A DNA stretch of 63,964 bases, filler included, from Cladosporium halotolerans (lineage: Eukaryota), in NCBI RefSeq assembly GCF_011745625.1. It is 13 parts of 13 records of this genome, joined end to end, with 100 filler letters (N's around TTAATTAATTAA, not from the genome) between each part and the next. Parts side by side here need not be neighbours in the genome. Positions count along the whole stretch, not along the records: positions 30,923 to 35,791 come from NW_027191678.1; 12 more parts are not named here. The stretch is one strand, 5' to 3'. Below are positions 4,446-50,729 of the stretch, piece after piece. Positions within the stretch are counted from its first letter, which is position 1. Each line of letters starts with the position of its first letter. The position numbers were made by a program, and so were the translations under genes. Below the pieces are notes generated by a model, which had not been told where the DNA came from, searched no databases, and saw nothing but the letters and a program-made list of their open reading frames with translations.

Positions 4446-5351
4446 CGGCACGCGCAGTCCCCGGCACCTCGGCCAGTTTATAGTACTGTGGCTCCAGGGA
4501 CTAAGGCCTTTGAGGTAGGGTCAAGCCATTGACCTCGCGGCCTGCTGTTTCCTAGCCAAAGTGACGCTCCAGGCCCAGGTCTGCCGTTCCCGAGGGTCGC
4601 GCCGCAGCCATGATCAATCCAAATGCCCGGGTCCGCCCGACGTCAAGTTGCAAACCGAAGTTAACTTGCCAGGTCTTTTGCAGATGCCCTTGACGAGTCG
4701 GCCTCAGACCCTCCTATTGGGACCGGTGGTCTGGTCCGGCCCGTGACGCACGTCTAAGCCCTCGATGCCCGCTTGAATTTCCGAATGTGATCACATCGCT
4801 GACTATTAGACTGGCTGGCGCGCATCCTGTCATCAACCCCAGCGGGAGTATCAGTAACGCTCCAGCGGGTCAGGCGGCCCGAAAGCTTCGTAACTAGTAC
4901 TGCTACACGTTATTTTTGAACCCGTCTCATGCGTGGCATCTTGTGCGAGTCCAGTCACCAGCGGTCGGCAATGCCGTTGTGGCAAGCTGCCAAGTTTGCG
5001 AGAGGTTGTCCTGACTCAAGCCCCGGGATTGAAAGAGACTAGCACCACGATGCGTTGGCCTTCAGTCCAAAGTTCTGGAGCTTCTCCAACGCGCAGACAA
5101 GCCTGGCAAGACAGTAAGCAGATCTGGACCCCAAACACTTGCTTCATCGCGCTTCACATGCTTGACTAAAGCTTCAGTGAGACTGCTTCCCCGCCACGTT
5201 CGACCAGACGCGCTGAGGCAGCAAGCAGGCCCAGGCCCCCCGCCTCCAGCCCTGACCCACCAGACGGCTTGGCTTAGGTTCCAGCACTATCGTTTGCGGA
5301 ACCGGTTTCCGGAATTGCATCGTCTTTCTGGTTGATCCCTACGCGGCAGAT

Positions 5352-5451
5352 NNNNNNNNNNNNNNNNNNNNNNNNNNNNNNNNNNNNNNNNNNNNTTAAT
5401 TAATTAANNNNNNNNNNNNNNNNNNNNNNNNNNNNNNNNNNNNNNNNNNNN
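5352..5451. other. Artificial contig spacer (N44-TTAATTAATTAA-N44); first of 12 in the window
   Basis: Identical 100-nt N-padded linker with stops in all six frames recurs about every 5 kb; contigs are roughly size-sorted. Confidence 0.98.
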
Positions 5452-7598
5452 CTTCTGCAGGGCGCGTCATATAGCTGAACCACCAACACAAACATCACAG
5501 GCAGGTCTAGAAGGCGGAGTTGCGGGGGTGGAGCCAAAGGCCGAGCGCATTGTGTGGTTTACTTTCAATCTCGTCCGGACGATCTCAAACAAGGAGGTGC
5601 AGGGAGGTTCAATTGCATGACTTGGATGCATGTAGCCACCGGATTATCCAAGCGTCAATATCAAAGGTCTAGATGTATGAATGCATGGGTGAACCTCAAT
5701 CAAGCAACACGCCATAGTCGATGCAGGCTGTGGAAGTGACTGTACAACAATGCGTTCTCACACAAGCGGTGAAGGCAATGCTTGATGTTGAGGCAGTATA
5801 ATCTTCAAGGCTCGTAGTTACAGATGTGTCGGCCTCGCCTCTCCGAAGCTGTGTCGGCTTCATGTGAGGTTCACAAGCTCAGCCGCTCACAGCGCGACCC
5901 GACGCCTCCTCGTCTGTCGGCTCTGCGCAGCGTTGTGCATCGCGAGTAAGCTCCTACACATCGTCCGAGCCATCGCAAATGTGCCTTGCCAATGACAAGC
6001 TTGGGTCGTTGCAAAAATTGCCCATCGCTGCTGCTGATCTCGTCAGAAGAGACACCAAGACACCAACATCGCCATGGAGAGCGCTGACGGCCGATCTACG
6101 AGGAAGAGATGAAGCACGCGAGCCCCCAACATTAGCAACCGCTTTGTGTGTAGACAAGTCCAGGCCCAGAAGGGATGATGGTTGCACATCATCAGTCTGA
6201 GCTCCGCGAAAGTGGATCTCACCTCACGTACGGAAGGACGATGATCATGGCTACACCAAAGCGCAATGCGGTGGGCTCATGAGCCATCACGAGTTTCGTG
6301 GCGAGTCTCAATAACGATGGTCATGTGACTCCAGATTTGGGCAGGGCCGTGGAGTCAGGTGGCATGAATCGAGACAGGGCTGGGATCGCCTGTGGTTCCA
6401 CGTCAGCCGGATGTCACAGCTCGTCCAGCCCGTGTATTCCCCGTCCTCCCACACGTACTCACATGGGATGATGAAGCGCCGCCGGCACTGTTGGGGACGC
6501 CTGGAAGCAGAAGATGAAGATGACGCGTAAATTACGCACAGAGACATCTGGGCACCGCGCTTGTCATGGACCCATGTCGCCTCCAGGAGCGAGATGGCCA
6601 GCACCGATGCGACGTCCCAGGAAAGCAGGATTCGGGCGGCGCGATCCTGGCGTGCGTCAGCTGAGTCCTTACTGCAGGAGCCGGTCCTCCTTGTTGGTGA
6701 CCCAACGCTTGAGAGGTCTCCGGCGATTGGTGGCAAAGCCAGATGATGCTGAAGCCAAAGCCGCACATCTGCATCCGTCAGCTAATGGATCAATCCTTTC
6801 CATCGAGCCCGCGACAGCCCGTGCGTACCATGCCTGGCAGTCGCAGCAACTTTGATGCTTGTTGCGGCGCGTTGCTGTCGGCCTTAAGCGGTATGTAACA
6901 TGTCATGAGGCCGGCCTGGACGGCAGTGAAGACCGCGAGGATCGCTGCGAGCAGCGCGAGGAAGTCCAAGGCGCGGGCGAGGACGAAGGCAAACTCGAAG
7001 ACAAGGGCGAAGAACGCGTGGTCCTGGCGGTACAGGTGGACGAGTCGGCCGTCCTACATATGTGACTGTCCAGGAGCCACTCGCAGAGATTGCGAGAGTT
7101 CATGAAGTTTCAAAGACATTGTGCACGAAGTTTCCGTGGATACAGTGGGCTCAGTCACCACTGCGGGTGCTTGAGAGTGTTGCTGTCCTGTTCCCGAGAC
7201 CTCATGTGGTGCAGCCGATAGCTATGGCCAAGGTCTAGACTCACTCGAAGAAACGGATCACCATCGCGGGCCTGGTGGCAGAGTCACTGATGCATTGATA
7301 ATATGTCTGCACCGAAGGTGAGCTACGGATGACCTCGCCGATAAGTAGTAAACTCACTCACATGCGCCGAACGGGAAATCGTGATTCCATCGTGGATCAC
7401 ACGCCAGTTGGGGCATGCTCAGAAAGCCAGGGGATGCCGCATTTTGCGAGCGCGGATGGGGCCGGAGGACCCATTTCCATGCCAAGCAGTCTCGGGTCGA
7501 GCTTTCTTGGCATCGAGTTCATCTCGCAGCGCCAACAGCGGGTGTTCTCTTCGCAATTCCTCCTGCGTTAAAGAGAGACATCACGAGACTTATTCAAC

Positions 7599-9145
7599 AT
7601 GGCAGCAACAGAAAGTGTCATCGGCATTGTCAAGGCTTATCTGCAAGATGCAGAACCAGACCAGGTATCAGAGAGCCTGAGTCCCTGTTCTGGCGACTCC
7701 TCCGTTGACAAACCTTCAGGAAATCGAGACAGCGCTACGACAATACTTCACGAGGCTAGACGAGTCGGCGCAGAAGCGGATACTACCCGGTTGGACCAGG
7801 CCATGTGGCCGAGGTTGTGGGGAAAAGCGACCTCGGCAAGAGGCAACAAGCGACCAAAACGAGAGCTCTTATGAGCGGTCTGACTCTGAGACGGAAGATC
7901 TCAATCGCCACATCAGAAAGGCTTGGAGGTTCCTCAACTCGAGACAGTCCGAAAGAGCTCGTGCAGATAAAACCGCGAAGAAATCGACTGTAGACTACGA
8001 GGTTGTACGTGGAGCTATATCGGCAGTGCAAAAAGGGTACACTTGGACTCAGGAAACCGATGTTGAGAAAATATGGTCTATCGATGGCTCAGCAAATACG
8101 TCCCAGGAGTTTAATAGCAGCTCGGACTTGCATCGCCTGTCTTTGCTATACAAGAAGGTGGTTTCGTCAACGCATGGCAGCGAGTGTAAGAGAAGGATCT
8201 TGGCCTTGCTCTATCACCACGAGTGCAGACGGCACCGAATTTCGATCGGCAAGAAGGGAAGGGGAGACATTGAAAAGTCGACTGGGATGTCATTCGGTAG
8301 CGCCAAAGATCTGAAGCTTACTGCATGTGCATGGTTGAAATTCGTAAATGCATGGGGGCTCGGCGGGTTGTTGATGCCTGGACCAGGGCAGAGGAACGTG
8401 TAAGATTGTACCTCTCAGAACGAAGGGGGCGCATAGCTGATGATATCGCAGGTTTGAACGTGAGCTGTCCAGCGAGCATATGGAAGACCTGTGGACCTTT
8501 TGTGATGAACACATGCCAGACATGGCGCGCAAAGTTGGAAGCCTACATCAGACTGCGAGAAATCTCATTGTGAAGGGGATTGAGATCTATCGAGGCGACG
8601 CGACGGTCCTTGAAACGATTCAAACTGCTTTAGCCCAGGCTTATCGGACAGATTGGCGGCAAGGAGTTAGTAAGTCGCGCGCGCAAGACAAAAGACTGGT
8701 GACAGACGAGACGTCGCCAACGATGGACCTTTGCGGGAGAACGCCACTGCTTACCCTCGCGGCTGCCGCCCACCATGTACAAGAGAACGCAGCATCACGT
8801 GCAGAAAGTTCGCCGCGTTTGGCACCAGAAGCTGTCACAGAAGTCGCACAAAATCAAAACTTGGGGGACGTGGGGGTTCAAAGATCGTTGCCATACGAAG
8901 GTTCATCGAATGTGCCAGAAATTTCCCACGGAGACGCCTTGACTACGATGTGGCCCAGCGATCAATCTTTATGGTCGGGCAACTTGGGGCCATCCGAATG
9001 TCAACTCGTTCATGCCCAAGACCACTTTCAAGATACTCAAATGTCGACAGGGGCATGTGCGGTCACGTTTCCGGAGCTTACCGACACCTGGTCGAACGAT
9101 CTATACTCATCGTGGTTTTCCAAATGCGTTCAGGATTTTTGTTGA
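7599..9145 (+). CDS. Hypothetical protein, ~479 aa, 3 exons (7599-7664, 7720-8399, 8452-9145)
   Basis: Introns 7665-7719 (GTATCA..TTGAC..CAG) and 8400-8451 (GTAAGA..CTGAT..CAG) join three ORF pieces in frame. No recognisable domain. Confidence 0.7.
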
Positions 9146-9161
9146 GTGGAGCCAGCGCGGA

Positions 9162-9650
9162 TCAGGTCCTTGTAACTTCGTATCCGAGATATATATTCCC
9201 TGCGTCGACCTTAAATGTCTCTTTGAGACTGAATGACCTTCCACGATCCGTCTCATTTTCGACAGACAGCGCCAGCACCCAAGGGTCCTCTTGCCTGCTG
9301 CTATCTTTGGTCCCGTTGAATGGCGCTGTGTTCTTTGTGACAAAAATCCTTCGCCACTGCAGTTCGCCGTGGTGCCTGTTTTGGAACACCTGCACACACG
9401 TGAGTCATCCTTCTACATGCCCTGCAATTGCTCTTTGCCCACCCACCTGCGACTTGAAGTGTTTCTTGATGGGGTCTAGGATGTCTTCGTATTTTCCAGT
9501 CGACACGGGTGCGAGCTCGGACTCCTGATTCGTGTATTCAGGATCTTGCGCCAATCTTTCCTTGAGCATGTCACCAGCAAGCTTAGCGAGCTCGCAGAAA
9601 TGCTCAGATGCAGCAGCATTGTTCCCAGTATGCATACGATCGCCAGCCAT
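9162..9650 (-). CDS. Small hypothetical protein, ~143 aa, 2 exons (9650-9447, 9389-9162)
   Basis: 57-nt intron 9446-9390 (GTGGGT..CTCAC..CAG) removes the stop and joins MAGDRMH..KSQ to VFQNRHH..VTRT. Confidence 0.6.
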
Positions 9651-10582
9651 GATCGACTAGGGCTCCAAGGAGCACGCAGAAAGTAGGTGGCGGTATGGTC
9701 CGTGTGGTTTCGATCCTGATGAGGAGGAGGGGTCGAACAGCTTCCCATGCGCGGGTGAACTGAGAATGCGTGTGGGGTTGCCAAGACAGATGTCATCAGT
9801 TTGCCAGTCCCCACAAAGGTCGAGGTACAACAGCATGAGGGAACAATGTCATGAGGATGACTGCCAAAGCCTCGATACAAGCTCGAGCTGTGAAGGAATC
9901 CCGTAATCATATGGTACGAAGAAGATCCATGCGTGGCCATGAGCATGCGCGCACACCCACGTTCTCGATATTCTAGAACACCCCACAATCATGTGACGGA
10001 TTTCGCAACGCTGCAGCATGTATGTTCAGCCTCCGGCGGAAACCAGCATTGAAGATGTGCAAGAACTGGCTGACTTTGCAATCGCGCATCTCCGCTGCGA
10101 CGATACTTCAAGTTAGGGCCTGCCCACCCGGACGCTGCCTGCAGCCCAGGGCTGGTCCAAACCCGATCCAAAGCTGTGCGCTGGACCAAGATGCCATGCA
10201 AAGTTATTTCTCAACAGCCACCCAGATGCAGCAAAGCGACGTCTTACCTCGCTGGAAAATTTGCTGCTGCTTCTGAGACCGAATGCAGGCAACGGCAAAA
10301 AATTCTTTGCATGTGAGGCGAAGAAGAAGCGGCGATCGTCGCAGTCAGGATGGCGCATTGAGGCTTCCAGAAGACGAAACGATTTAGAAGCTTTCCCCAC
10401 CTCAAGCACGTCCACACCTCAGGCACGCTTGACGCGGCACCAACGCGTCCTCTTCTCTACGTGATTTCTCAACGACCGCAACNNNNNNNNNNNNNNNNNN
10501 NNNNNNNNNNNNNNNNNNNNNNNNNNTTAATTAATTAANNNNNNNNNNNNNNNNNNNNNNNNNNNNNNNNNNNNNNNNNNNN

Positions 10583-11230
10583 GCCGACACATTTTGTGAT
10601 CTCTTCAACTAGTCGGCAGCAGCCGTCCTCCTGGCGCGCCCAGTCACCGAGGTTGTTCAGAACGAGACAGATGGCTTCCTCCGGCTCCATCGCGCCAACT
10701 TTCACCGTCGTGGTGCGCCCACCCAACAGTTGCGAGACTAGAGGGTTCCGTCTGGTGACTATCACAGTGCCTGCCGTGCTTTTCGGAACCAGAGCGTCCG
10801 CATGCCATGACAGGTCATCTGCATTGTCCACGACCGCCAGCCATCTCTTCTCTAGGCTCCGCAATAACGACAACACCGCTTGTACACAAGACATGCCCTG
10901 CGTGGGTCAGTTCGCATTCGAGGCCTCGACTGGCAGGCGTAGCGCGCGACAGCATCGCTCGTAACTCGACCACGCGGTCTTCTCGCTTCGTACATCTATC
11001 CAGAGAACAGTGTCGTACTCCCTCTCGTGTTCTTCGATATAGCGCAGCACGAGCTGGGTCTTCCCAGTGCCGCCGAGACCTATCACTGCGACAGCGTGTG
11101 CCAGCCCAGTTCCACCCTGCGCTCTTCCTAACTTCCCACAAAGCTCTTTTGACAAGTGAGGTCGTTCCGTGTAGGTTGAGACGGTAGCGAAGGGTACGGA
11201 GACGCACCGGCTCGAGCGTGGAGAACACTC
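10583..11230 (-). pseudogene. NB-ARC (NLR-like STAND NTPase) fragment, frameshifted and cut by the contig end
   Basis: P-loop VIGLGGTGKTQL, then YDTVLWID. In another frame, Walker B WLAVVDNADD and GTVIVTRRN. Frame break near 10900. Confidence 0.85.
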
Positions 11231-13793
11231 GTCGCTAGTAGAGTCAGTCTCGAAGATCGCTAGGATATTGAAAACTTCGGAGTCTTACGAGTAGATGTTC
11301 AGGCCACCGCGGATGGTTTGGCGGCCAGTTTCGTTAGTGATGCACGATCCTGGGAGATTTCGAGCTTCGAAGGTATCTGTAGACGCGGTCAGCCCTGTTC
11401 GGCCAGCGCTTCACACCATCTCGCGCGGCCAAGTCGAGATGAACAACTCACTGACGTTCTGTCCGAGGTGTGTACGGCTATAGCCCTCAACCGAGATGTT
11501 TCCATCATGTGAACACTCGGTGGCCATCTCTTAGCACTGGCGCTGATGGCCGGGACAGACCATAGACGCGAGGCTTGATATTCGCAAAAAGATTCGGAGT
11601 CGTCAGCATCTCTATAGACGCACACGGCTTCGTGTTTGACACCACGGCGTTGAGAAGATCGAGTGTAGCGAGATTCGTGCAACGCGAGAGGTCGGACTGA
11701 GCAGAGTGTCGCTCGTCGACATGGGTGCCTCGTCAGTGCGCATCTTGCCCCGCGGGCGGCGGCTTTGTGCATGTGGCTTTGTTTGCTGCAGCACCGTCTC
11801 AACAAGATGGCAGAGCCCGTCTAGCGTGATGAAATCGCACAGAGATAGAGCACTCCAAGTCATGTCGGACGCAACCCCAACCCTAAACCTAATATTCACG
11901 ACCTCGAATAGTCTGATGTAGAACTACCTCGGCAATTTGTCTAAACACGCCGCTCGACACTTTCAATCAATTATTGGAGGGCTGTTTTCAAGCAACAAGC
12001 GCAATCCATGTAACGTTGCATTCGCTTGCGCAAACGCTTGAGCGTATTGAGGAACAGACGGGTTCGAAACAATGAGAGGTGTCGCGATCTCAGATGCGTC
12101 GGGAGAACCAAGATCGCAAACGCTCCGCAATAAGGTTGTCCTCCGACGCGGCAGGGGACGACTGTGGAGCCAATCGACACGATCGCTGGACACTAAACCT
12201 GAAGACGCAAGAGAGATGGCGTTCGCAAGGTACAGTAAATCTAGTGTATGAAGTGGAACCACCGTGCGGAGCGGTATTGTAAATTCCAGTAGGTTAAGAA
12301 ACGACTCGGGTAATTAGACGTGTCCGCGATTCAGGACGTGGCGAAATGGCCCCACTTTCCCTTTTCCCCTGCACAAGCGGGCATTCCTCACGGCAAACCA
12401 GAGCCGAAGGCAGGTACGCAGGGTCCACCGTTGAAGCGAAGGATGGCGTTAGCTAATGATCGGTTCCGAATCACCCTTGCTTAGCCGGACTTGAATATTG
12501 CATACACGCTTCCGTTGCACCTCGGCTCCAACCGAAGCAACGTCGAGCTGCCAAGCGGCACGTTCTGCCTCTCCACGGAAGACGCTCGACAGGCATCCGT
12601 CTCGTGCGTTTTGCCGGCAGTTTTGCGAGTTGGAAATCCTATCATTGGATGATTAACTTATACCATGTCGAGCTACTGAGCCGATCAACCCGGACTCTCA
12701 TTCCTCAGAGCCTCCTCCACTCATCACTAGCTACTTTGTTGCACGGATCACATCCAATCAGAATGCTGTTAGCACGGTCCATGCTGCGCATTATCGCGCT
12801 TTGCAAATCTCACGCTCGGTCATTATGATTTCCATGTTTGACGCCTTGCGTCGCTTCCTCATGTCCACCGGCGGAGCAGTTTTCTTGGGTGCTGTATCAC
12901 TTGTCACATCTTTGCAAGACCACCAAAGAGACCGGCTTCGCAGCATCCGAAGATGCACATACCCAGGTTGCCGTTGGCACTGATACAGGACACCGAACGA
13001 GTGGCTCACGGTGCCACCTTGTCTGACGCAGTTACCAACTCTAGCGAGACTTGTAGCAGAGCCCAAAGTGCTCTGCTTGTGCTAACGTTACACGGCTTCC
13101 TCTTATGCATATATTGTTTCTGCGTTGCTTCGATGCATTTCTTGATGAAGCTTAGGGGCGGTTTGAGGTACAGATCGTGAGTTCTCCCCCAGAAGACAAA
13201 CATTAGGCCTGTTGATACCTCCGTCTTGAAGGCTGACAATAGCGGCGTAGGACCAGCGTCATTGTCTACCTGTCTCTTGTCTCGCACATCGTGCTTCTGC
13301 CAAATCTATGGTCTTCCGAGCAAAGTCCGCAAGGACTTGGATATTCGTTGTGGGTATTCGCTCAGCTAGCGATCGGCTGTACTTCCATCGCTTCACTTTG
13401 GCAACAAGACGAGGAGGAGATCCAGATCGCCGGTTGGTAAGTTGATCGCGCGACGTCCAACTCATGATCCCTTCCTGACGTGACCCTAGGCTCCTAAATG
13501 CATTATGCTTCGTTTTGGTCAACGTGCTTTATCAAGTACAGCATTCCTGCAAAACTGACGTCCGAACCGGCGTCGGCAGTCCCTTGTCCAGCGTGGATTT
13601 CTGGATTGTCCTTGGCCTGGATGCTGTATACCTGATGGGGAATCTACACAGGACATTGCCAAGTATTACTGCGGTTTGGAAGACGTATGGGTATGGAGAT
13701 GTGGGATTTTGAATAATATCGAGCCTGGGAAAGAATGATATCGCCACGGTACCTCTGGCGCAACATGCCGTTGGCGTGGTTAGCAAGCGTAAG

Positions 13794-15581
13794 CAGGGTG
13801 ATCATCAAACAAACAAACAGGATTTCGGAGAATGTTTGTCTGCTTACCTAAGCTTGAGCGTCTTGTTCGTTTGTTTGAGAAATGGCAATGATTTGTTTGT
13901 CTGTCTGTATCGTTTGCCAAGACATTATTCGGTCTTGGCGTTCGAATGAAAGCGGGTGGCCGATGCGAAGAAGGTGCTCTCATGTTGGACTGGCGGCAGA
14001 AAACCTCATGCTATCCCCTCATCGTACCAACTACGCAGCAGTTGTTGAGCTTCCGCAAGTTCATAAAGTGCCCGTGGCCTGTCGTTATTGACTGAGTTGC
14101 CAGCGATTGAGAATGTTCTTTCGTTCGCAGCAGCACTCGCTGGGATTGCAAAGAACTCGAACGCCAGATGTCTTAAGAGCGGGAACCTCGTATGGTTTTG
14201 ACGCCACCATTCGAGAGGAGATGGCGAGTACAGTCCCGGTGTCCGCTCTTCCCGCTTGTAGAGCTGCAGATCATCCATCGAGTCGACTTCTTGTGGCAGG
14301 GTATTGTACTCATCGAACCTCGACTCTGACTTGATCGTCGGCTCTGCCGGGCTCAGATAAACGGCCTTTTGCGCTTCCAGCGGCCATCTCACCTTCGCGA
14401 GCAGATACGCATTATCGATTGCATCTTTCGCAGCATCGATCCATGCCGGCCTGCATCCCCAATGCCTCTCGAACCAAGCCATCTTCAAGTGAGGATGGAG
14501 GAATATCGCCATCCTGTAGGCGAAGGTGTCATCCGACAAACCATAATACTTGTCAAGCTTCTTCCACCCCAGGTTGACACACGATTTGATGTGACTGCTT
14601 GGCTCGTATCTGTATCTTTCCTTCAGCTTCTCGAACTCACCCAGTAGGCTGTCGAATGTTGCCAGCTGCTCCCATAACGCGTGTTTCGTATCATTGTCTT
14701 CTTGTAACCGTAACGAAGCACTCTTCAAGGGTAAGAGTACTTCGAGCAAACGCTCCAGCTCGGACCAGTCTCCCGCATCAAGGCAATCCGAGGCAGATAG
14801 CCGGTCGCAATCGCCGAGAGATCGAAAATGGGTCTGGTAGAGCTCAATGGCATCCCGGAGCTTGATTGCGCGCTCGATCATATCACAGCTGCTATTCCAC
14901 CTGATGCCGCCGTTGACAATCACTCGGTAGATCCGGTCATCGTCGGAATCGGCGTCGACGTTCTGCTTCATCTCAAAGAAGCGTCGACGTTTGGGGGTCT
15001 TCTGGATGTGTGTGACCAGATTGTGGAGTTTACCGACGGGGCCTTTGCGACGCCATGTTTTCAGCGCTTCTTCGGCCGGAACAGACCGGACGAGTGCTTC
15101 GAAAGCTGCTATATGTCGGCTGTCCGAGAGGCCTTCCTCGCGCTCGCCTGGCTCGAGCGCATCGATGTCTGTACCGTAAAGCACGGCCTTGGCCACGAGG
15201 TTGATGACATGGGCCCCACAGCGCAGACGGTGGTACTCGGGATGAATGTCCAGAGTACTGCTCAAGATCTTGATCGCTCGATCGTTTGCAGTCGCGTTGT
15301 CCGCCATGAAGTATTGCACCTTTTCGCCAATACTGTAGTCATGAATCACCCGCAAGACTTCCTCTGCGATGCTCTCGCCACTGTGTGATCCGCGAGTGTC
15401 TCGCAGACCAAGGAGTATGACACGCGGACGGAGAGATGCGTCCAGGTAATGCGCCGTCACACCAAGGAAATCCAAACCGTTGTTCGCGGTCCAGTTGTCG
15501 AAGGATATCGTTATGCTGCTCGCTGCTTGTCCTAGTGACTTCTCGATTGTGCTTTTAGCAGAGGACGCTGCTTGCATGATC
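13794..15581 (-). mobile_element. hAT DNA transposon, 3' part with terminus
   Basis: Terminus CAGGGTGATCATC at 13794 followed by AAAC/GTTT subterminal repeats, just downstream of the transposase. Confidence 0.85.
14006..15581 (-). CDS. hAT transposase, open frame, 5'-truncated by the contig end
   Basis: SFDNWT, ADNATAN, RCGAHVINL, RWNS, and C-terminal dimerisation motif WW..FPLL..PASAAANERTFS. Confidence 0.93.
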
Positions 15582-15949
15582 NNNNNNNNNNNNNNNNNNN
15601 NNNNNNNNNNNNNNNNNNNNNNNNNTTAATTAATTAANNNNNNNNNNNNNNNNNNNNNNNNNNNNNNNNNNNNNNNNNNNNCGGAGAGCCCGAGGCCGAC
15701 TGTTCCAAGGGAGTCTGCAAGAGGCCTGACAAGGTTGCCTTCCGTTTCCACCCTTGACATCGGGCGCTTCCGGGCCTGTGAAAGGAGTACGGCCGCGGCT
15801 CGACTTTCGGCAATAGTAGACCTGTCTTTGGAGCGTCGTTTTGGCGAGGAAGCAGCAGGCCGCGATGCCATCGCTTGACCCTACCTTGCGGACCTTCATC
15901 CCTGACGTTGCATCGACCGAGGTGATGGGAGTTGCGCGTTTGGTGGCTG

Positions 15950-18900
15950 AATGCCATCCACCACGATGGCAGGCCTCTTCTTGAAGCACCACCTCGGCCA
16001 GCACGGCGGAGGCCGCGCGTTCCGTGGCGCAATATTGGCTCCAATGATGGCAGGCCTGTCTGCCAGACGTCATATTTGCCATCGCTAAGCGCGGTCAAAG
16101 ACACACCTGGCGCTGTTCGTCGTCTGCGCTGCCTGATTCATTTGCCGAGGCGCTAGGCATTAATCTCCGTTTGTCCTGACTCACGCTCGGCAGTGGTGAG
16201 CCTGATGACTGATCGGCACATAAATCAAGACCTGACAGTCGATTGCCGAACCGAGTTTGAGCTTATCTGCGCTCGGCTTAGAGCCAAGGTGCGGAAGCTG
16301 CCGTGCGGTGAGCTTACAGCAACGACATCGCAGTTCTGAACACCGATTTCGCCTTCGAGTGTACGTGCGGAAATATGTGTCTGCTACAGCAAACCACCGA
16401 TGCTTGATGCTTTTGCTATTTCGGAGAACATAACTTCACGCAAGCCCATGAGCTCTGGCATATGGCCGTGATGTGAACGTGCGGCTTGGATTCTGCGCGT
16501 CATGTGATGCGTGGCACATGACAACGATACTTGAAGAAGGGAAAAGACGATTGGTGTACTGCAAGCGGACGCTGCTCCTCCCTACTTACCGTCTCTTGTG
16601 TCGTGGCAGGTTGAAAACGCCCACGCCCCATTGAAGCACTACCTCTTGGAGCGCCGGTTCCTGACTTGAGCCGACGTGCGGCGAACTTGACAGCTTGCTC
16701 CGACAACTGAAGCTCCTGAGTCCTGGTTAGCTATACACAATGCCACCAGCGCCTTTGACTTGGTCCGCAACCTACATGCTCCCACCGCGGTGCACTTCAT
16801 AGCAGTACCTAGCGGTCGTGAGGGGTCTTCGATGACCTGTCACACGGCGCGGTCCAGTGAAGACGCTGGCGAGGGACGGAAGGAAGAAATGAGAAAGTGG
16901 AGGAAAAGGAAATGAACCACAAGTTGGAGGGGAAAAGGTGGTGGTTGCAAGGCGCTTGGCCTCCGCCCTAGGTCGCTCAGGTAGCGTCGCACGGATGCCC
17001 ATCCGTTCTCTGGAAAATACGGCTCTTGCTCCGTGCGTATTAGGCTCGAGACTGCAGGCAGTGCGAAAGCTGCCAAAACACGCTTCACGGAGCTTCGTGA
17101 CAGAGCGAGGTCGAAGAAAACGCAGCTCCCGCTGTAACGAACTGGTGTCGGTGGAGCTTGCGCTGCAGCGGTCAAAGATGAGAACAACGACAGCGGCGGC
17201 GAGACTGACGGCCGTTGACGGTGTCGAGGTCGATGTCGCGGAGCTCTGGAAGCATGAAGTCCAAAAGGTATGGCATGGGAGGATGGAGTTAGGAACCTAC
17301 TTTCGAGATTGGGCCGCGAGAGAAGTCTTGACCAGCTCTGGCTGGCTGGAATGAGTCTTGGCGAGTCCAGTCGGGATCCTTGAACGGATGGTGGTACGCG
17401 TCCGCCCTCCGACAATGCTGACATGACATGGTAGTTTACTGCACAGTATGACCATCATGTGTGTCCCCCCTGCCTTCCTCCTGCCTTCCTCCTGCCCCTG
17501 CCTTGCTCCCCTGCCTTCCTCCCTGCCTTGCTCTCTGCCTTCCTCCCTGCCTTCCTGCCTGCCTTCCTCCCTGCCTCGTCGCGGTCGTCTTTCGCGCCTT
17601 CTTGTTGCCAACTTCCTTGTCTCCTGCCCTGCCTCCTCTTCCTCCGTGCCCTATCCCTTTCTTGGCCCGTTCCTCACCCTTTTCTTGCCTCCCTGCACTC
17701 TTCCCTTTCCTTTTCCTTTCCTTCCTTTCCGTCCACTTCCATACCTTTCCTCCCGCCTTCCACTTTGACCGCTTCTCTGCCTCCTCTTCTGCTTCGTTCC
17801 CTGCCATATTCCCTGCCTTCCACTCCGATCTCTTTCCCAGCCTTCTCCCTGCGTCTGCCCTGCCGGCTGACCTGCCTCCTCCTCTTGTTTCGCGGCCCCT
17901 ACCTTTCTTGGCCCCTTCGCAGCCATTTTCTTGCCCTCCATCCGTTTTTCCTTGCTTGCTTCCTTTCTGCACTCTTCTCTTCCTTTTCACTGCTCTTCAT
18001 TTCCCTCCTATTACTGCCTTGTCTTTTTCCTGCACTGCTCCTCTGCCGTCTGTCTCCCTTCTTCCCGCCATCTTTCCTGCCTTCTTCCATATCTTCCAGT
18101 CCAGCCTCTTCCTCTCTTGCTTCCGTCTTGGCCTCCTCCTGCCGTTGCTCACTACTCCCTCTTCCTGCCTTTCTTTTCTTTATCTTCTCCTTCTTTCCTT
18201 CCCTCCCTCCTGCGTTTTTTGTCTTTATCTCTTCTTCCTTCCCTCCTTCTTTTGGCTTTCCTCTCATCTTCCTTTCCTCCCTTCCACCCAACCACCTACC
18301 TCCTCGACAGCAACCAGTCAGTGGTCTGCCTCGACATCACGGCGCGATGACACTGCTTTCTACACAGCGCACTACCGCGGAATGCCGTGAGCTGAAGCAG
18401 GAGAAGAGCTTGATATCAACGTCGGCATTTCACTTCTGAGCATTCGTGTCGTCCAGATACGCATAAACGAACCGTGAGTCGAGATCGTCGTAGCACGGCA
18501 CAGAAGCATACGGCGTGCGGTACAACACGACACAAGATGACAAGTCATGAGCAGGAGCAAAGCAGCACCGAAAAGCGTCGTCGAGCATGCCACGACACCA
18601 CACGGTACGCCCTGTCACGGCACCGTATGGTGTACCGAGTCAACGTGCAACGAAATCAAAATCGCTAGTCTGGTGCTTCATGCTTCTCCTCGCCATTCCG
18701 AAGCGGTGTGAGGATCGACAGACGCTGCCAGCTAGGGCTGTTGATCCGCAGACGTCCAAACTCCGGGTCAGCAAGGCCACTCTTGCTGCCCTGCCCGCAG
18801 ATGCAAGACAGCAGCGTGTGAACCTCCTCAGTGAGAGCTGTCCATTACACCACCAATGCAGTTCGACATGGGAGAGCCCGAATAACTCGAGGCGGGCGGG

Positions 18901-30922: not shown

Positions 30923-30954
30923 ACCCTAATATTAACCCTAATATTAACCCTAAT
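30923..30954. repeat. Telomere-like terminal repeat, 12-bp unit TATTAACCCTAA (~2.7 copies)
   Basis: CCCTAA cores at the contig start, on the C-rich strand as expected for a left chromosome end. Confidence 0.65.
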
Positions 30955-31584
30955 CAACATCCACATCTCACTCATCAACAAAAACAACCACCTTTTCATC
31001 AACACCCACTAAAACACACCCCTATTCACACACAACATCCTTATCATACAAACCATCCCTTTCAACACACAACCCCCCTATCTTCACCCCAATCTCCAAT
31101 CAACCCTAACCCTCTCCACCTCCAATCCTACTACCATTCTAACCAACTCCCCTTATCCTTCCTCCTATCCCCCCCACCTCATATACAACCCAAAACCTTC
31201 CCTCCCACTCTTCTCATCACCTATCTTCACCAACCTTACCACTACAACTTCCTCTACTCTCTCTCCCCCCTTCTTCCCTCCATCTATCCCTCCCTCCCTC
31301 CATCTCATCCTCCCCATCTAACTCCTTACTCTCTCAAAACATACCTTCTACACACCTCAATCCTTCATCCCCAACAACCTCACCTCCTTCCACCACAACA
31401 ACCCCATCTTCCCCCCTCCACACCCCTACTCCCTTCAAACACTCATCCTCAAACCCTCTCCATCCAATTCACCCTCCTCCCCTCCTCCCCTCTATCCCTT
31501 CATCTCCCTTCCTTACCAACCCTACACTCACTCCTTTAAATCTATCCACTAAACAACCCTTCTTACTTCAAACACACACTCCCA

Positions 31585-31832
31585 CCCATAACTTATTCCA
31601 ACTTCACTTCTCTCAATCCCTCCCTCCCATAACTTATTCCAACTTCACTCCTCTCAATCACTCCCTCCCATAACTTATTCCAACTTCACTTCTCTCAATC
31701 NNNNNNNNNNNNNNNNNNNNNNNNNNNNNNNNNNNNNNNNNNNNNNNNNNNNNNNNNNNNNNNNNNNNNNNNNCTCTCAATCACTCCCTCCCATAACTTA
31801 TTCCAACTTCACTTCTCTCAATCCCTCCCTCC
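31585..31832. repeat. 41-bp minisatellite, collapsed around an internal N gap
   Basis: CCCATAACTTATTCCAACTTCACTTCTCTCAATCCCTCCCT units at 31585, 31626, 31667 and after the gap 31701-31773. Confidence 0.9.
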
Positions 31833-34318
31833 CTTATATCCATTCTTCCCAACCAATCTTCTAAACCAACTCCCCAACTTCTTCTACATCCACTCTACAC
31901 ACCATACATCCCTCCCTCTTCTTAATCACTTTCTATCCCCTATAACACTCAACTCTTCCTTTTCCACCAAACCCTTCTCATCTTCTCTACTTCACCCCAT
32001 CCATCAATCCAATTCTTTCCATCCCTGCTCCCTTTTCCCCTCACTCAAACACATCCTCCAAACCATACCCTTCAATCCAATCCCCAACCTCTCTACACCC
32101 TCATCCTCACCCTCCTCTTCACCCTCATCCTCACCCTCATCCTCACCCTCACCCTCCTCCTCACCCTCACCCACTATTTCCACTTCACCCACCATACATC
32201 TCCTTTCTTTCTCCTCCTCCTCTCCCTCTTCATTCTCTTCTACCCTTTCACTCCCTCTCTATTCTTTTCTATTTCCATCTATCATCTACCATACTATTCA
32301 CCCTACCATTCTAATCCATTATACCCTCCCTTTTCTTTCTCCTACAATTTTCCCTTTACCTTAACCATCTCATTCTTTTATTACAACTTACAACCATATT
32401 ACATCTTCCCTTTTCCTCTTCCTGTTCCCATTTATTTTTACATTTATTTTTATATTCCCTTCCTGTTCCTCTTCCTGTTCTTCTGAACATCTCCCCTCCT
32501 CCTTTCTTGTCATGCTTACATTCATCTTCATATTTATCTTCATCTTCACTTCCCCACCTCGCCTACTTGTCCAAATCCATCTTCATTTTCATCTTCACCT
32601 TCCCCTATTTCCTTTGCCCCTTTCTTCTTCTTCTCTTTTGTTGTTGTTGTCTTCCTTCTCTCCCTCTTCCTTCCTATTTCATCCCTACTCACCACTCTTC
32701 TCCTTCTACCCTTCTCCTTTTCATCTCCTGTCTATCACTGCTTTCTTTTCTTCTCCTTTTTTTATTTTATTTCTATTTTATATACCTGTCCATGTCCATA
32801 TCCCTGTGCCCTGTGCATCTGTCCTTGCTTCCTTGTTCGTTTCTCTTTGCCTGTTCCTTGACTCCTCTCATCTCTCTGTTGAATTTTGCTCCTCCTTGAC
32901 TGCCTTGTGCCTTCTTTGTGTTCCCCTTCATCTTCCTGCTTGCCTTTCCGTCTACCCATGTGTCTGCTTGCCCTGTTCCAACTGCCCTGCCGCTTGCTTC
33001 TCCTGCTCTCCTTTTCTTTTTCTTTTTCTCTTTCTCTTTTTTTTTGTGCTGCCTCATCCTCTATCTACATTGTGATCACGGTTTTCTGTCGTCTTTCCCA
33101 TTGACACCCTGTCCCCACACTGACGTGTTCACACTCACCTGACTCACTTGCTCGCTTACCACTGCGCTTTCTGCGTTGCTGATTCCCTCGCCCACCCACG
33201 AATTTGTTGCATTTACCTTGTGACTTTGCACAAACCTTCGCCCGACCCGGAAACTCTGACTTTCCTCCACTACATTTTGACATCGTTTTCGATCATATTT
33301 ATGCTTACCACTTCCCTACCTGCCGCCCCAACCTTCCTGCCCTGTCCCTTCGACCCGGTCGTCCGGCACCGCCGTTGCACTAACGCACCCGCATCCTACG
33401 CTTGTATTCACCACCTGTCCGCGCCGCTCCCCAACCGCCCCCGCTAACGGCTGTCTGCTTCCACCTTACGGATCACATCTCCCTTGCTATCTGATTCGCC
33501 TCTTTGTGTGCTTGCTTGAAACCTAAATGCCATCACCTCGTTCGTCCAACCGGAAACTCTATCAACCCTAACCCTACACTGACATCCTCGATCTCGCCTT
33601 ACTCATGCATTCACTTACTGCTACTCTTTCTTGATTGCTGACATTGCCCATGCTTCCTCTTGCTACTCTCTCCTGTTCCGAAAATCTGCCCACGACCTAC
33701 TTCTTGTTCCTTGCACATGCCCTTTGAACGCTGCCCATTCTCGTCTTGCTGACTCATCCCCACGTTCACGCCCTGCTGACATAATACACCTTTTCATCAC
33801 ACGGATCGTATCTTCGGAACCTGTCACGGAAACCCCTGCTCCTGTCGTTGATTAAATCTCCTCTGTGCAATAAATGAACGCCCGTCCCACTTGACAACCC
33901 ACACCCTCGTCGCCTTCCATCGACGATCCCAAAAATTCCACCATGTTTCCCTTCCACTGCGCCTCTCCTCTTGCTTTGTCGAACCATCTCTTCCGCTCCC
34001 CCTGCCATGCGTGTTTGACCTCGTATGCGATACTTAAACGAACATCCCTAAACGAACTTTGCATCTATGCCTCATACTTCCTCAAATCCTTGTCCCGGTC
34101 CCTAAACTCTACCTCCGCTTTCCTCAAATGTCTGTTTCCCGGTCGTTATCGTGCGTACTGTCTCACACCCTTGTACCTTGCTGCCACAAATTTCTACGCC
34201 CTCACTCTTCGACCCGCCAACTCGCCACTGCCGTTATGCTATTGCGTGCGCATCCCACGCTTGAACTCACTACTTGTCCACCCCACTCCTCGACCGCTAC
34301 GCTAACGGCTGTCCGCAT

Positions 34319-34413
34319 CTAACCTTCTAACCTTCTAACCTTCTAACCTTCTACCCTTCTACCCTTCTACCCTTCTACCCTTCTACCCTTCTACCCTTCT
34401 ACCCTTCTACCTT
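34319..34413. repeat. 8-bp tandem array (CTAACCTT)4(CTACCCTT)7
   Basis: Read directly from the sequence; resembles a degenerate telomeric repeat. Confidence 0.9.
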
Positions 34414-35077
34414 ATGTTGTCGGACATCCTGGACCCTCATGACTCGTGCGTTCGGACGGCTATCTTCGTCCAACACTCACCCTGTTGCATCTGAACATAT
34501 TCCCTCCATCCCTTTACTTCTATCATGTCACTTCGTGCCGTCTTATGCCTCCGTGGGGTACCCCGCCTACATACTTAATCGTCCCCAACTTGACTCTCTG
34601 TCGACCCTCACCCGATCGCTTTTAAATGCTTTCATCCTCATCCCCCTTGCCCGTCGTGCCACTTCGTACCGTCCTATGCCTTCGTGGGGCACTCCACTCG
34701 CGAAACCATCCAAACCTCCGACGCCTGTCGGCACAAAACTGCTTAACATTGGTACTGATCCTTTTTCTTGTCTGTCTCGGCCTTCTCCTCGGTAAACGTG
34801 CCTTTTTCGATGCGCCCATCGATTCACCGGACTGCCCGCAACCTTGGCATTCTTCTACGCTCACTGAACACCGATCGCTCGCCTCAACGCTGCCCGCCCT
34901 TCGGCACCCCTGTATGTGCTTGTGACGGAATATCTCGGCATCGTTTCTGCCTTTCATTCCATCTGTGTGCGCCCCACGCTCACCGCTCGCCCTCTGAAAC
35001 TTGACGTATTCACTGACACTTATACGGGGACTCTCCGTCCTGATCGCCGTGACCGGTGACATTCTCTGGTCTCCGTG

Positions 35078-35791
35078 CTATGCTAGTAATGTTACATGTG
35101 CGGCACTCGATCGGCCCGCCTGGTCTACGCCTCCTCTTGCCGCTGTAAACAACTCCCTCCGCCTTTGCGCCTCCCTGCTCTGGCTCAACTTCCTCAAATG
35201 TGTATGATACGCTTCTTTCAAGACATCCACCTTGATCTCCGTGATGTCCCACATCCCCAACCATCCAAACGTCCGCCAGACGCGCCCCGCCTCGGTGAAC
35301 CCATACCGCTCTCCCTCGCACCTACGCTCCCTCCATGACCCTCCGCGTTCGCGTCCCTCCCGCGCCTCCCACTCATTCACATACCACGTCCGCGTTCCCA
35401 ATATCGCCGCGACGCTCTCTGCTACCACACCTCCTAATCGACACGCATCCTTGCTGGACTCAACCCAACACTCAATTTTGCCACGCCCACACTGACCACA
35501 CCACCCGTTGAACCCCTTGCAATCTTTACGTGTCCACAATCCCGAATTGTTCACCACACCAACGTACGCTCTGCGTACGGATTCGACGTCTGGGGGATAT
35601 TTCGTACACTCCCTCCAGTCGTGCTCCGCCCAGATACCATCGTGTATACGGCATATCGAACACGCTTCCACCCACGACTCCGCCTGCATATTCCATCTGT
35701 CTGATGGCTCGTCCCACTCGTCCAAAATTCTTTGTTTGTGGCATAGTAGAACATCGAAGATGACATCTTCGTTCTCCTTCGGCCTTGAATC
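35078..35791 (-). CDS. C-terminal Cys-rich part of a telomere-linked RecQ-helicase-like protein (5'-truncated)
   Basis: W..CSIC...H...C...WCGQCG...C...C..GGVV..VAAI resembles the tail of fungal telomere-linked helicases and points toward the CCCTAA end. The helicase core is not in the contig. Confidence 0.55.
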   Translation of the reverse strand, partial: DSRPKENEDVIFDVLLCHKQRILDEWDEPSDRWNMQAESWVEACSICRIHDGIWAEHDWRECTKYPPDVESVRRAYVGVVNNSGLWTRKDCKGFNGWCGQCGRGKIECWVESSKDACRLGGVVAESVAAILGTRTWYVNEWEAREGRERGGSWRERRCEGERYGFTEAGRVWRTFGWLGMWDITEIKVDVLKEAYHTHLRKLSQSREAQRRRELFTAARGGVDQAGRSSAAHVTLLA

Positions 35792-49392: not shown

Positions 49393-50628
49393 TCAGTGCT
49401 GCTCGTCCATGGCGTCGTCGTGCTCAGCGGCACCGTTGTTGAAAGCGCCGTTGCCGTCGTGGGCAACCTCCTCGTACGGCGGAGGCAAGTCGTTGTTGTT
49501 GGCGAGGGCGGCATTGTTATTGTTGCCAGCGCCGTTTCTGACGTCGCGGCCAACGCCAAAGACAAGTCCGTAGCCATAGAAAAAACCGGCGTCGTAGCCA
49601 CGGTCGTAGCCATCGTGGTGGCCATCGTCGTAGCCATCGTTGTAGCCAGCTTCGTTGCCCTCGCTGTAGCCATTGTAGTGGCCCGCTTCGTAGCCATCGT
49701 AGTGGCCATCGCTTTCGCCATCGCTGTAGCCACGTTCGTAAGCAGCGAGATCGGCAGCGGCATTTCCAGCGTTATTGCCAGCAGGCTGGACTTGAACGCC
49801 GGCGTTCATGTTGCCGAGTCCTCCAGGGTTGCCAGCGCCGTGCATGTTGCCGAGACCAGGAACGTTGCCAGCGGCGTAGACATTGCCGTGGACAGGAGCG
49901 AAGCCACCGGCGTTCATGTTGTCGAGACCAGCAAAGTTGTCAGCGCCGTAGACATTGCCATGGACAGGGGCGTAGCCACCCGGATTGATGTTGCCGAGTC
50001 CGATGGGGTTGCCAGCGCCGTATGCATTCCCGTAAACAGGGGCTTGGCCAGGACCGTACATGCCGGGAGCCGCAATGCCAGCGCCAAAGACATTGTTGAA
50101 AATTGCGATGTATCCGTGGTTGTTCATGTTGGCGAGGGGGGCAGGGGCGACAGCGGGGCCGTCGAGCCCGGCGAGGTTGCCGGCGTCGCCAGGGCCGGGA
50201 GCACGGGGGATGGCAGCAGCGCCGATGTTGTGGGCTGCTGCGCCGGCGGCCGCGCCTTGGGGAGAACCAAAGCGCGGACCGTTGCCGGCGCCGCCGACGC
50301 GCCCATTGCCGACACCGAAGAGCCGGCCAACACCAACGCCACCACCACCGTTCCCGTTGCCGTCGCCGGGTGGCCCTCCGCCGTCGCCACCATGGTCACG
50401 ACCATGGTCACGGCCGCCCCCCTCGCCACCATCGTCCCCGTCGGAGTCGTCGGAGTCGGAACTCCCATCCCCATCCCCATCCCCATCCTCATCATCCTCC
50501 TCTTCCTCCCCTACCTCATCCTCGTCCTCGTCCTCCTCCTCCTCCTCCTCCTCCTCCTCCTCCTCCTCCTCCTCCTCCTCCTCCTCCTCCTCTTCCTCCC
50601 CTACCCCATCCCCCTCCCTCTCTCTCGC
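49393..50628 (-). CDS. Low-complexity protein (poly-E/D, G-rich, G/N pseudo-repeats, GYxxG repeats, PPPY), 5'-truncated
   Basis: Frame is open from the contig end through MNNHG..DEQH*; regular GGC/AAC/GAC codon use. Confidence 0.75.
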   Translation of the reverse strand, partial: AREREGDGVGEEEEEEEEEEEEEEEEEEEEEEDEDEDEVGEEEEDDEDGDGDGDGSSDSDDSDGDDGGEGGGRDHGRDHGGDGGGPPGDGNGNGGGGVGVGRLFGVGNGRVGGAGNGPRFGSPQGAAAGAAAHNIGAAAIPRAPGPGDAGNLAGLDGPAVAPAPLANMNNHGYIAIFNNVFGAGIAAPGMYGPGQAPVYGNAYGAGNPIGLGNINPGGYAPVHGNVYGADNFAGLDNMNAGGFAPVHGNVYAAGNVPGLGNMHGAGNPGGLGNMNAGVQVQPAGNNAGNAAADLAAYERGYSDGESDGHYDGYEAGHYNGYSEGNEAGYNDGYDDGHHDGYDRGYDAGFFYGYGLVFGVGRDVRNGAGNNNNAALANNNDLPPPYEEVAHDGNGAFNNGAAEHDDAMDEQH

Positions 50629-50729
50629 CNNNNNNNNNNNNNNNNNNNNNNNNNNNNNNNNNNNNNNNNNNNNTTAATTAATTAANNNNNNNNNNNNNNN
50701 NNNNNNNNNNNNNNNNNNNNNNNNNNNNN

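Follow-up and report, generated by a model that had tools for sequence, protein, structure and literature searches.

What leaves a DNA strand beside telomere-type repeats free of cytosine over 1.5 kb, in sequence that is mostly complex? This question is raised by an unplaced scaffold of Cladosporium halotolerans (NW_027191678.1, assembly GCF_011745625.1). The window, i.e. the whole stretch of DNA that was analysed (63,964 nucleotides), consists of 13 small scaffolds of about 3.6-5.4 kb each in roughly descending size. Since these unplaced scaffolds are merely joined by linkers (N44-TTAATTAATTAA-N44), adjacent regions of the window are not physically linked. The tract under study is exactly one of them (30923-35791, 4869 bp) and contains an internal gap of 73 N (31701-31773). 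On this scaffold and in its relatives we found a strand-specific loss of cytosine that follows the 3' neighbour in a fixed order, grows toward the end, is conserved in four lineages and runs through open, re-coded genes, in which T is in excess at silent sites that precede a T.

Cytosine loss on the telomere-directed strand

Base counts bore out the preliminary description of this scaffold, which had reported a near-total loss of G with recovery toward the right and abundant C. A single G (at 32027) is present among the 1428 called bases of 30923-32423, the G content then rises to 8.7% in 32424-33100 and to 14-18% toward 35791, and C makes up 34-46% all along. The GC skew of the scaffold is -0.59. 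In each of the 12 remaining scaffolds its absolute value is at most 0.083, and no G- or C-free runs of at least 60 nt were found there except a (CCT)n array (50460-50626). The loss is strictly one-stranded, as had been proposed: it concerns the minus strand, which has TTAGGG polarity, and the other strand is normal. The affected strand runs 5' to 3' toward the chromosome end and is the sense strand of all genes of the element described below. On this strand, 30923-32423 forms a C-free terminal domain, a patchwork of complex sequence and short minisatellites. By the sum of array lengths, short tandem arrays take up roughly 475 of its 1428 bases (about one third), leaving about two thirds outside arrays, in agreement with the earlier statement that the tract is mostly complex.

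The loss depends on the neighbouring base. From 30923 to 35084 (4162 bp, 4089 called bases) the minus strand is free of CpT: no ApG was seen on the plus strand against 67 expected, and the reverse dinucleotide GpA was counted 71 times there. In 32424-35084 alone, 56 ApG were expected and none was seen (Poisson, 3e-25). Within the transition zone (32424-33100), where the minus strand is very purine-rich, only CpA cytosines survive; 53 of the 60 G remaining on the plus strand in 32000-33099 are part of TpG. The last CpT, CpC, CpG and CpA are located 4163, 2158, 1638 and 1501 bp from the end, with one stray C at 1104 bp, and all eight residual CpT of the scaffold lie in a small gene at its right end (35078-35791). 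The loss had been taken for context-independent; it follows instead a strict 3' neighbour order, CpT >> CpC, CpG > CpA. Its gradation by distance from the end, also noted before, was recovered for CpC, CpG and CpA in three independent tails. An in-place G>A decay of ordinary DNA does not account for the composition: per 200-bp bin, the plus strand contains 61-85% pyrimidines and 15-39% purines (22% purines within the G-free part). Since purines, A included, are depleted there, transitions alone are insufficient. The GC content of the element is near 50%.

The first bases of the scaffold (30923-30954, plus strand) comprise 2.7 copies of ACCCTAATATTA, which contain three CCCTAA units in C-strand orientation, as at a left chromosome end. 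The genes of the scaffold point toward this end. Apart from these three units, no canonical telomere repeat array is present on the scaffold. The earlier designation as a chromosome-end contig thus holds as probable, not proven, given the CCCTAA start and the lack of any contig piece reaching beyond the left end on one side and the missing canonical array on the other.

The sequence was checked against public sequencing runs with 404 sampled 31-mers of 31774-35791 and by comparing contigs, not raw reads. Twenty of the 24 runs listed (15 studies) carry 94-99% of the sampled 31-mers. In all four runs whose contigs were compared (four studies, none flagged as possible source), 30 of 30 bins were covered. 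Contig pieces differ from the G-free part at 0-2 positions: no difference was found for X11 30925-31606, X7 30991-31606 and X7 31804-33411, one for X13 31804-33407 and two for X8 31181-31639. The G-free part contains only three of the 29 listed differences, each of them a T>C change that introduces no G. None of the 29 differences, from four runs, creates an ApG on the plus strand, with about 2.5 expected, which is not significant. Pieces of all four runs extend beyond the right end by about 1.4-3.7 kb, and no listed piece extends beyond the left end. Because the contigs of four independent public runs have the same letters, the G-free stretch is real DNA as far as contigs allow to judge, and a normal G content in other data, which would have pointed to an artefact, was not encountered.

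A 41-bp minisatellite spans the gap (31577-31836, plus strand). In the runs, word depth over the 41-bp (31575-31737) and a 12-bp minisatellite (32064-32226) is 6-10 times that of the neighbouring sequence (8-10 times for the 41-bp one), so these arrays are either truly longer or have other copies elsewhere in the genome. Near-identical copies of 31774-35791 occur in runs that bear a dozen different organism names and in metagenomes from air, food production and factories; this broad occurrence fits a ubiquitous mould or a common contaminant. Two further sequences of unusual composition in the window are without the dinucleotide rule, namely the G-poor (CCT)n / C-rich stretch in which a second scaffold terminates (50430-50629) and an A-free run of 152 nt (17458-17609).

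The rule in related elements and their genes

Metagenome contigs were scanned with the family of the small gene, which identified seven loci belonging to three further lineages; the four lineages in total are all close kin. L001 and L002 are 98.9% alike and 88% alike to the window in the small gene, L003 and L004/L007 are 91-97% alike, and L005 and L006 are 99.9% alike. CpT is nearly absent from the telomere-directed strand in these lineages, with 5 seen against 497 expected in L005 (15,266 bp), 0 against 241 in L003, 2 against 170 and 0 against 33 in L007, and 1 against 48 in L002. ApG on that same strand is close to expectation (with the window first, followed by the relatives, 576/534, 1559/1540, 608/601 and so on), and flanks outside the elements have normal CpT (120/129 and 617/566). 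Toward the end, the order of loss (CpT, CpC, CpG, CpA) is identical in all three tails (window, L002 and L005/L006). In L005 the last of each is found 6254, 2214, 1635 and 1605 bp from the end, the last three distances being close to those of the window.

The most complete picture of the element comes from L005. On one strand it contains, in order, normal flanking DNA, a G-free (CCCATAA/CCCACAA)n array, a helicase gene of 1779 codons, the small gene, a conserved non-coding module, a helicase gene of 1595 codons, the module again and a purine-rich tail, the final 1605 bp of which are without any C. Both helicase genes (2671-8010 and 10041-14828) encode OrsD, DEAD and Helicase_C domains (RecQ-type). 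The reverse complement of 34027-32223 of the window aligns with L005 14653-16399 at 74% identity. Because the tail, the module and the small gene are common to the helicase-bearing L005, homology places the scaffold of the window at the telomere-side, non-coding 3' end of a conserved telomere-linked-helicase (TLH, Y'-like) subtelomeric element. The scaffold itself stops inside the small gene and its own sequence is without a helicase. In L001, the closest relative of the window, the C-terminus of a Pif1-family helicase, which is not RecQ-like, is encoded directly upstream of the small gene (3-992); this gene is possibly part of a Helitron.

CpT is lost equally from coding and non-coding DNA, and the open reading frames (ORFs) of 1779 and 1595 codons are open. 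All 85 leucine codons of the first L005 helicase gene and 77 of 78 in the second are TTR, and NCT codons are not used at all. Leucine makes up 4.8% of residues in the helicase genes against 9.0% in a flanking ORF, and T at third positions is reduced to 10-11% from 22%. The genes of the element are conserved at 57-86% protein identity although they are CpT-free. The small gene of L001 has normal CpT in its 5' part (14 in 400 bp) and none in its 3' part.

At the CpT-free onset, L005 (2560-2760), L003 (2637-2777) and L007 (2416-2547) have the CCCATAA / CCCACAA array, which is G-free over 88-141 nt and is located about 40-240 bp upstream of the ATG of the first helicase gene. It looks like C-strand telomere repeats in which CT has been broken up. 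At the other end of the element, homology is confined to the proximal tail: window and L005 are alignable only over the first ~450 nt of the C-free domain (three segments, 54-61 bits against a shuffle maximum of 50), and no homology above shuffles was detected between the C-free domains of the window and L002. The distal tail therefore turns over quickly while remaining C-free. Five reference segments were also converted in silico (C>T, C>G and C>A), and a hypermutated copy of another part of the element was thereby rejected, the best score (41 bits) being equal to the shuffle maximum (41 bits). Within these references, there is no support for the tract being some other sequence turned C-free by hypermutation; it belongs to a conserved element the proximal tail of which aligns across species.

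L007 represents an internal copy, with normal DNA beyond it in its contig of 50.6 kb. The helicase frame of this copy is split into three consecutive ORFs, and at ~7500-9500 (corresponding to L004 ~2500-4500) the copy contains a 2-kb AT-rich insert with a classical, two-stranded signature resembling repeat-induced point mutation (RIP; CpA 0.46, CpG 0.55, TpA 1.36). The element beside this insert has no RIP signature. Since the frame is broken and the insert present, yet only 4-5 CpT are found in total, L007 looks like a recently stranded copy that is beginning to decay and to regain CpT. Further downstream, a distantly related RecQ-type helicase pseudogene in the same orientation (12136-15777) has in-frame stops and normal CpT.

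On the window scaffold, the small Trp/Arg/Glu-rich gene is represented by its last 237 codons and the stop codon (35078-35791, minus strand) and exits at the right scaffold end. The proteins of its family share a coiled coil at the N-terminus and a CxxC-x9-H-x4-C motif. An exhaustive HMMER search of 1.8 billion representatives returned 39 family proteins (E <= 0.001); the best homologue, a protein of 370 residues, is 86% identical over 236 residues, and a word search gave no longer homologues. No Pfam family matched the gene, and Foldseek retrieved no PDB entries at E <= 0.001 with its AlphaFold model (mean predicted local distance difference test score 74.5). By-eye inspection revealed no deaminase motif.

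Two copies of the conserved non-coding module are present per element. Module B (33232-33592, minus strand), which contains GGGTTAGGGTT, is ~94% identical to L005 15079-15440 over a 200-bp core; module A (34198-34325, minus strand) is a diverged second copy of the core. The module with GGGTTAGGGTT is CpG-rich and also occurs at L005 9318-9556 and L002 1505-1688. Its core is far better conserved across species (~94%) than the adjoining small gene (69%). The module could act as a promoter or an origin or be bound by a protein. No Rfam family, tRNA or structured RNA was found in the scaffold or the module (covariation term -0.28). The scaffold also contains an 8-bp array of 11.8 copies of TCTACCCT / TCTAACCT (34318-34411, plus strand; AGGGTAGA on the minus strand) and a 44-bp motif (33747-33790, minus strand) that is 95% identical to the 3' end of helicase gene 1 in L005 (7970-8013). 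A similar copy of this motif lies about 60 nt 3' of helicase gene 2 (L005 14890-14932).

Direction of the change and its possible causes

Silent sites carry information on what has replaced the missing cytosines. In the three L005 genes, four-fold degenerate codons (GGN, GTN and CGN) that precede a codon starting with T end in A 57, G 67 and T 73 times (n=197). The same codons elsewhere end in A 141, C 202, G 203 and T 72 times (n=618; Fisher test for T, 2e-14). Before a T-starting codon, 87 T would be expected if C became T, 34 by renormalisation and 23 under C>G or C>A. In 31 control ORFs outside the elements, some of which overlap each other and are probably not genes, the tendency is opposite (T 69/425 against 487/2158). 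Together with the mixed result for L003 given below, these counts support a flux of C>T at CpT plus a share of C>A. The C-to-T process assumed in the preliminary description is thus supported by the silent sites of L005, where the missing C is mostly T, but does not show in the composition or on recent branches.

Recent changes were polarised with L005 as outgroup, giving 323 derived changes for L003 and 261 for L007. Changes that create CpT are nearly absent from these branches: after C, C>T was found in 1 of 52, G>T in 1 of 13 and A>T in 0 of 7 cases; before T, T>C was found in 1 of 27, A>C in 0 of 13 and G>C in 0 of 14. A constraint against CpT is active now. In the window and L001, the small gene has CpT in its 5' half that is derived: at 12 alignable sites none of three outgroups has CpT, and at 5 of the 12 all three have TpT. 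In the tail, the unpolarised substitution matrix between the window and L005 has C opposite T 26 times, opposite G 21 times and opposite A 11 times.

From these facts it follows that a mechanism must discriminate between the strands, favour C before T by a large factor, strengthen toward the end and halt at the 5' border. The explanation that we favour, if with somewhat less than even confidence, is a long-standing, strand-specific and context-graded pressure that removes cytosine from a repeatedly single-stranded strand and is balanced by selection. Under such a pressure C would change mainly to T, with a T strongly preferred as 3' neighbour, and exposure would rise toward the end. CpT would be kept out of the whole element, CpC and CpG would be removed within ~2.2-1.6 kb of the end and CpA within ~1.5 kb, and selection would have re-coded the genes to work without CpT. 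We infer that the cause is mutation rather than avoidance and that single-strandedness is what marks the affected strand. With its TTAGGG polarity, this strand would end as the 3' overhang. It could be exposed as the overhang after end resection, as the strand newly made when one end is copied from another by break-induced replication, or, during transcription toward the telomere, as the displaced non-template strand; the last route would tie the loss to the gene-anchored GC skew of fungi. Break-induced copying, in which this strand would be made first, would yield both a sharp border, at the limit of shared homology, and a rise toward the end. The G-free telomere-like border array might instead serve as a protein-bound barrier to resection. 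A precedent for the first route is the yeast cdc13-1 mutant, in which, once the subtelomeric 3' strand has been exposed by resection, mutations caused by a deaminase or bisulfite hit only the cytosines of this strand (PMC3521656).

Several observations weigh against this explanation. C>T changes on the two polarised branches (33 and 43) do not outnumber G>A changes (66 and 70), there are more C>A than G>T changes (28 against 13 and 20 against 11), and tandem double changes CN>TT, which would be a footprint of CpT>TpT, were not found. The junction test in L003 (GGN, GTN and CGN) is mixed, with T 20 and A 24 of 64. A preference set by the 3' neighbour is also not known from single-strand deaminases. 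The affected strand is rich in G+A and poor in T, which makes up 15-20% of the genes and 8-22% of most of the tail, and plain C>T should enrich T. The same argument from composition was raised against deamination as the cause of fungal gene skew in the text used here of McLean and Tirosh (PMC3315797). TpT in the non-coding tail shows no special enrichment by count arithmetic once the CpT ban is allowed for. In L005, L003 and L007, the CpT-free state stops within ~300 bp at the 5' border of the element, 15 kb from the end. A purely distance-driven process, as the preliminary description implied, does not predict so abrupt a halt, and a barrier or a limit of homology is needed. Finally, pure selection could also yield the silent-site T excess if mutation is a non-reversible process. 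The counts at NCN codons of L003 fit C>G; this is one of four junction comparisons.

A bolder form of the favoured explanation is possible but doubtful. Fungi of the Cladosporium type might possess a dedicated activity by which cytosines of the 3'-ending strand at chromosome ends are edited or removed in the 3' neighbour order T >> C, G > A. The TLH elements would have co-evolved with it, so that their genes came to be written without CpT, their C-free 1.5-kb domain being immune and maybe an extended cap, and the activity would be a strand-specific, single-stranded-DNA counterpart of RIP.

Among the alternatives, a gene-anchored GC skew whose end is never reset survives best, unlikely as it is. 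Here the last transcription unit would enter the telomere with no downstream promoter, and C would fall to zero. In fungal genes C prevails at the 5' end of the sense strand, and the 3' end is rich in G and poor in C (McLean and Tirosh, 2011, PMC3315797). Whatever drives this skew, which is tied to the phase of transcription, would then be the cause here as well. The element has the same polarity, since it begins with the G-free, C-rich array (88-141 nt) and ends C-free, and its GC and AT skews are like-signed, as in that article. In L005, the C content resets at gene starts and drops toward gene ends like a sawtooth, and in L001 and the window CpT thins out 5' to 3' along one gene. The published effect amounts to a few per cent, however, not to total loss, and four ordinary ORFs (three genes in the flanks of relatives and one long ORF of the window) have a skew of at most ~0.3, normal CpT and no C-free run. 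Moreover, where the second and third L005 genes start, C content is reset but the CpT-free state is not. The missing reset and the mid-gene change in L001 also weaken a process that is bounded by single transcription units. The skew alternative would overlap with the favoured explanation if the displaced non-template strand is the target.

Selection alone seems quite unlikely. It would require that CpT in the element, and any C near the end, is harmful on that strand or its RNA, so that carriers are lost. Possible reasons are a single-strand nuclease site, a demand for a G-rich, C-free strand in capping, R-loops or quadruplexes, and transcription that spares cytidine triphosphate. Intact genes that are CpT-free at 57-86% protein identity agree with this, and so does the lowering of both T and C, as expected if both letters of the dinucleotide are shunned; the lack of a net C>T excess on recent branches and the stronger conservation of the proximal tail module (~94%) than of the gene (69%) point the same way. 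Zero CpT across kilobases of fast-changing non-coding DNA, on the other hand, demands selection at every site, and the three-fold silent excess of T before T is better explained by C>T flux than by renormalised avoidance. Nor is any nuclease or binding protein known to follow a dinucleotide rule of this kind, which also counts against avoidance.

There is a slim chance that the agent is a one-sided relative of RIP, i.e. a premeiotic, homology-guided and repeat-limited process that acts on one strand and prefers CpT. Classical RIP itself was rejected, as it hits both strands, prefers CpA and leaves AT- and TpA-rich DNA; here one strand is affected, CpA is the most resistant and the GC content is near 0.5. 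For a relative, too, it has to be considered that RIP is two-stranded and the other strand is untouched here, that the first target of RIP is the last dinucleotide lost, at a GC content near 50%, and that the classical signature is present in the 2-kb insert of the same L007 contig and absent from the adjacent element. Such a relative would explain why sharp borders coincide with the element. TLH genes survive saturating RIP as open frames, as exemplified by a RecQ ORF of 3480 bp and 34.7% GC in Z. tritici (in the portion of PMC4522978 consulted). RIP preferences are likewise set by the 3' neighbour, in N. crassa in the order CpA>CpT>CpG>CpC (as cited in the available text of PMC5496416), and CpT>TpT is named among RIP forms in retrotransposon alignments in the section seen of PMC7882544.

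We consider it very unlikely as well that the terminal 1.5 kb never had C, having arisen from telomerase-type or variant G-strand repeats and expanding G/A/T minisatellites, with a separate cause for the CpT-free body. Short tandem arrays do occupy about one third of the domain, its composition is near that of the G-strand, distal turnover is fast and no C-containing progenitor emerged after in-silico conversion. Two thirds are complex sequence without a TTAGGG-related unit, however, and a short unit repeated head to tail, as telomerase would make it, is limited to 2.7 copies of a 12-mer at the tip. The context-graded loss over a homologous, alignable transition zone is a pattern of decay and not a junction, and C-free DNA would regain C by mutation unless it is removed. 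An artefact of sequencing or assembly, for instance through bisulfite-like conversion or a loss of G calls, has virtually no chance, since the same letters are found in the contigs of four of four runs, the words in 20 runs and the pattern in diverged metagenome relatives.

Significance and comparison with known systems

If the favoured explanation is true, these elements are a natural and long-running record of strand-specific cytosine loss at chromosome ends, a phenomenon so far demonstrated only by induction in yeast reporters and inferred from the genomes of cancers. Context hierarchy, sharp border and genes that are open and re-coded would together be a clean footprint for seeking the agent, and the same features could be used to test what drives the unexplained gene-anchored GC skew in fungi. 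Genes of 1,600-1,800 codons can evidently be written with one dinucleotide banned on one strand. In practical terms, the absence of CpT from the telomere-directed strand is a simple signature by which such elements can be found and unplaced subtelomeric contigs oriented. A description of strand-specific CpT loss or of a cytosine-free subtelomeric strand was not found in the full texts searched, and for TLH elements these searches likewise gave no mention of CpT being absent from one strand or of a tail free of C.

In retroviral genomes, G>A gradients of the APOBEC3G type are one-stranded, context-specific and graded by single-stranded time, which resembles the present case. The context there is set by the 5' neighbour, unlike here, and our elements bear no sign of reverse transcription.

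TLH elements are known as yeast Y', S. pombe tlh1/2, Magnaporthe TLH1, Ustilago UTASa and Z. tritici RecQ. The relatives resemble them in having two end-proximal genes with OrsD, DEAD and Helicase_C domains, and the scaffold of the window does so in having genes in fixed orientation next to telomere-type repeats. It differs in that its own sequence is without a helicase and that the upstream gene in L001 is Pif1-like. With RIP, the elements share context-dependent cytosine loss and the persistence of helicase frames; RIP is two-stranded, CpA-preferring and AT-rich in outcome, whereas the loss described here is one-stranded, begins with CpT and ends with CpA at ~50% GC. In the hypermutation of yeast cdc13-1 cells, as far as it is set out in the available part of the report (Chan et al., 2012, PMC3521656), only cytosines of the 3' overhang strand near the telomere are hit, as here. 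That system is induced, depends on a foreign deaminase or bisulfite and gives C>T and C>G about equally with UNG; here we see an evolutionary steady state with a 3' neighbour hierarchy, in which C is converted mostly to T and A. The gene skew of fungi, as presented in the text used of PMC3315797, has in common with the element a sense strand that is rich in C at its start and rich in G but poor in C at its end, and an AT skew of the same sign as the GC skew. It is a statistical tendency, in contrast to one dinucleotide being absent over up to 15 kb and all C over 1.4-1.6 kb. TLH elements, strand-asymmetric mutation and gene-polar skew are each known, and the total, one-stranded and context-ordered loss of cytosine in working genes is new to the literature searched.

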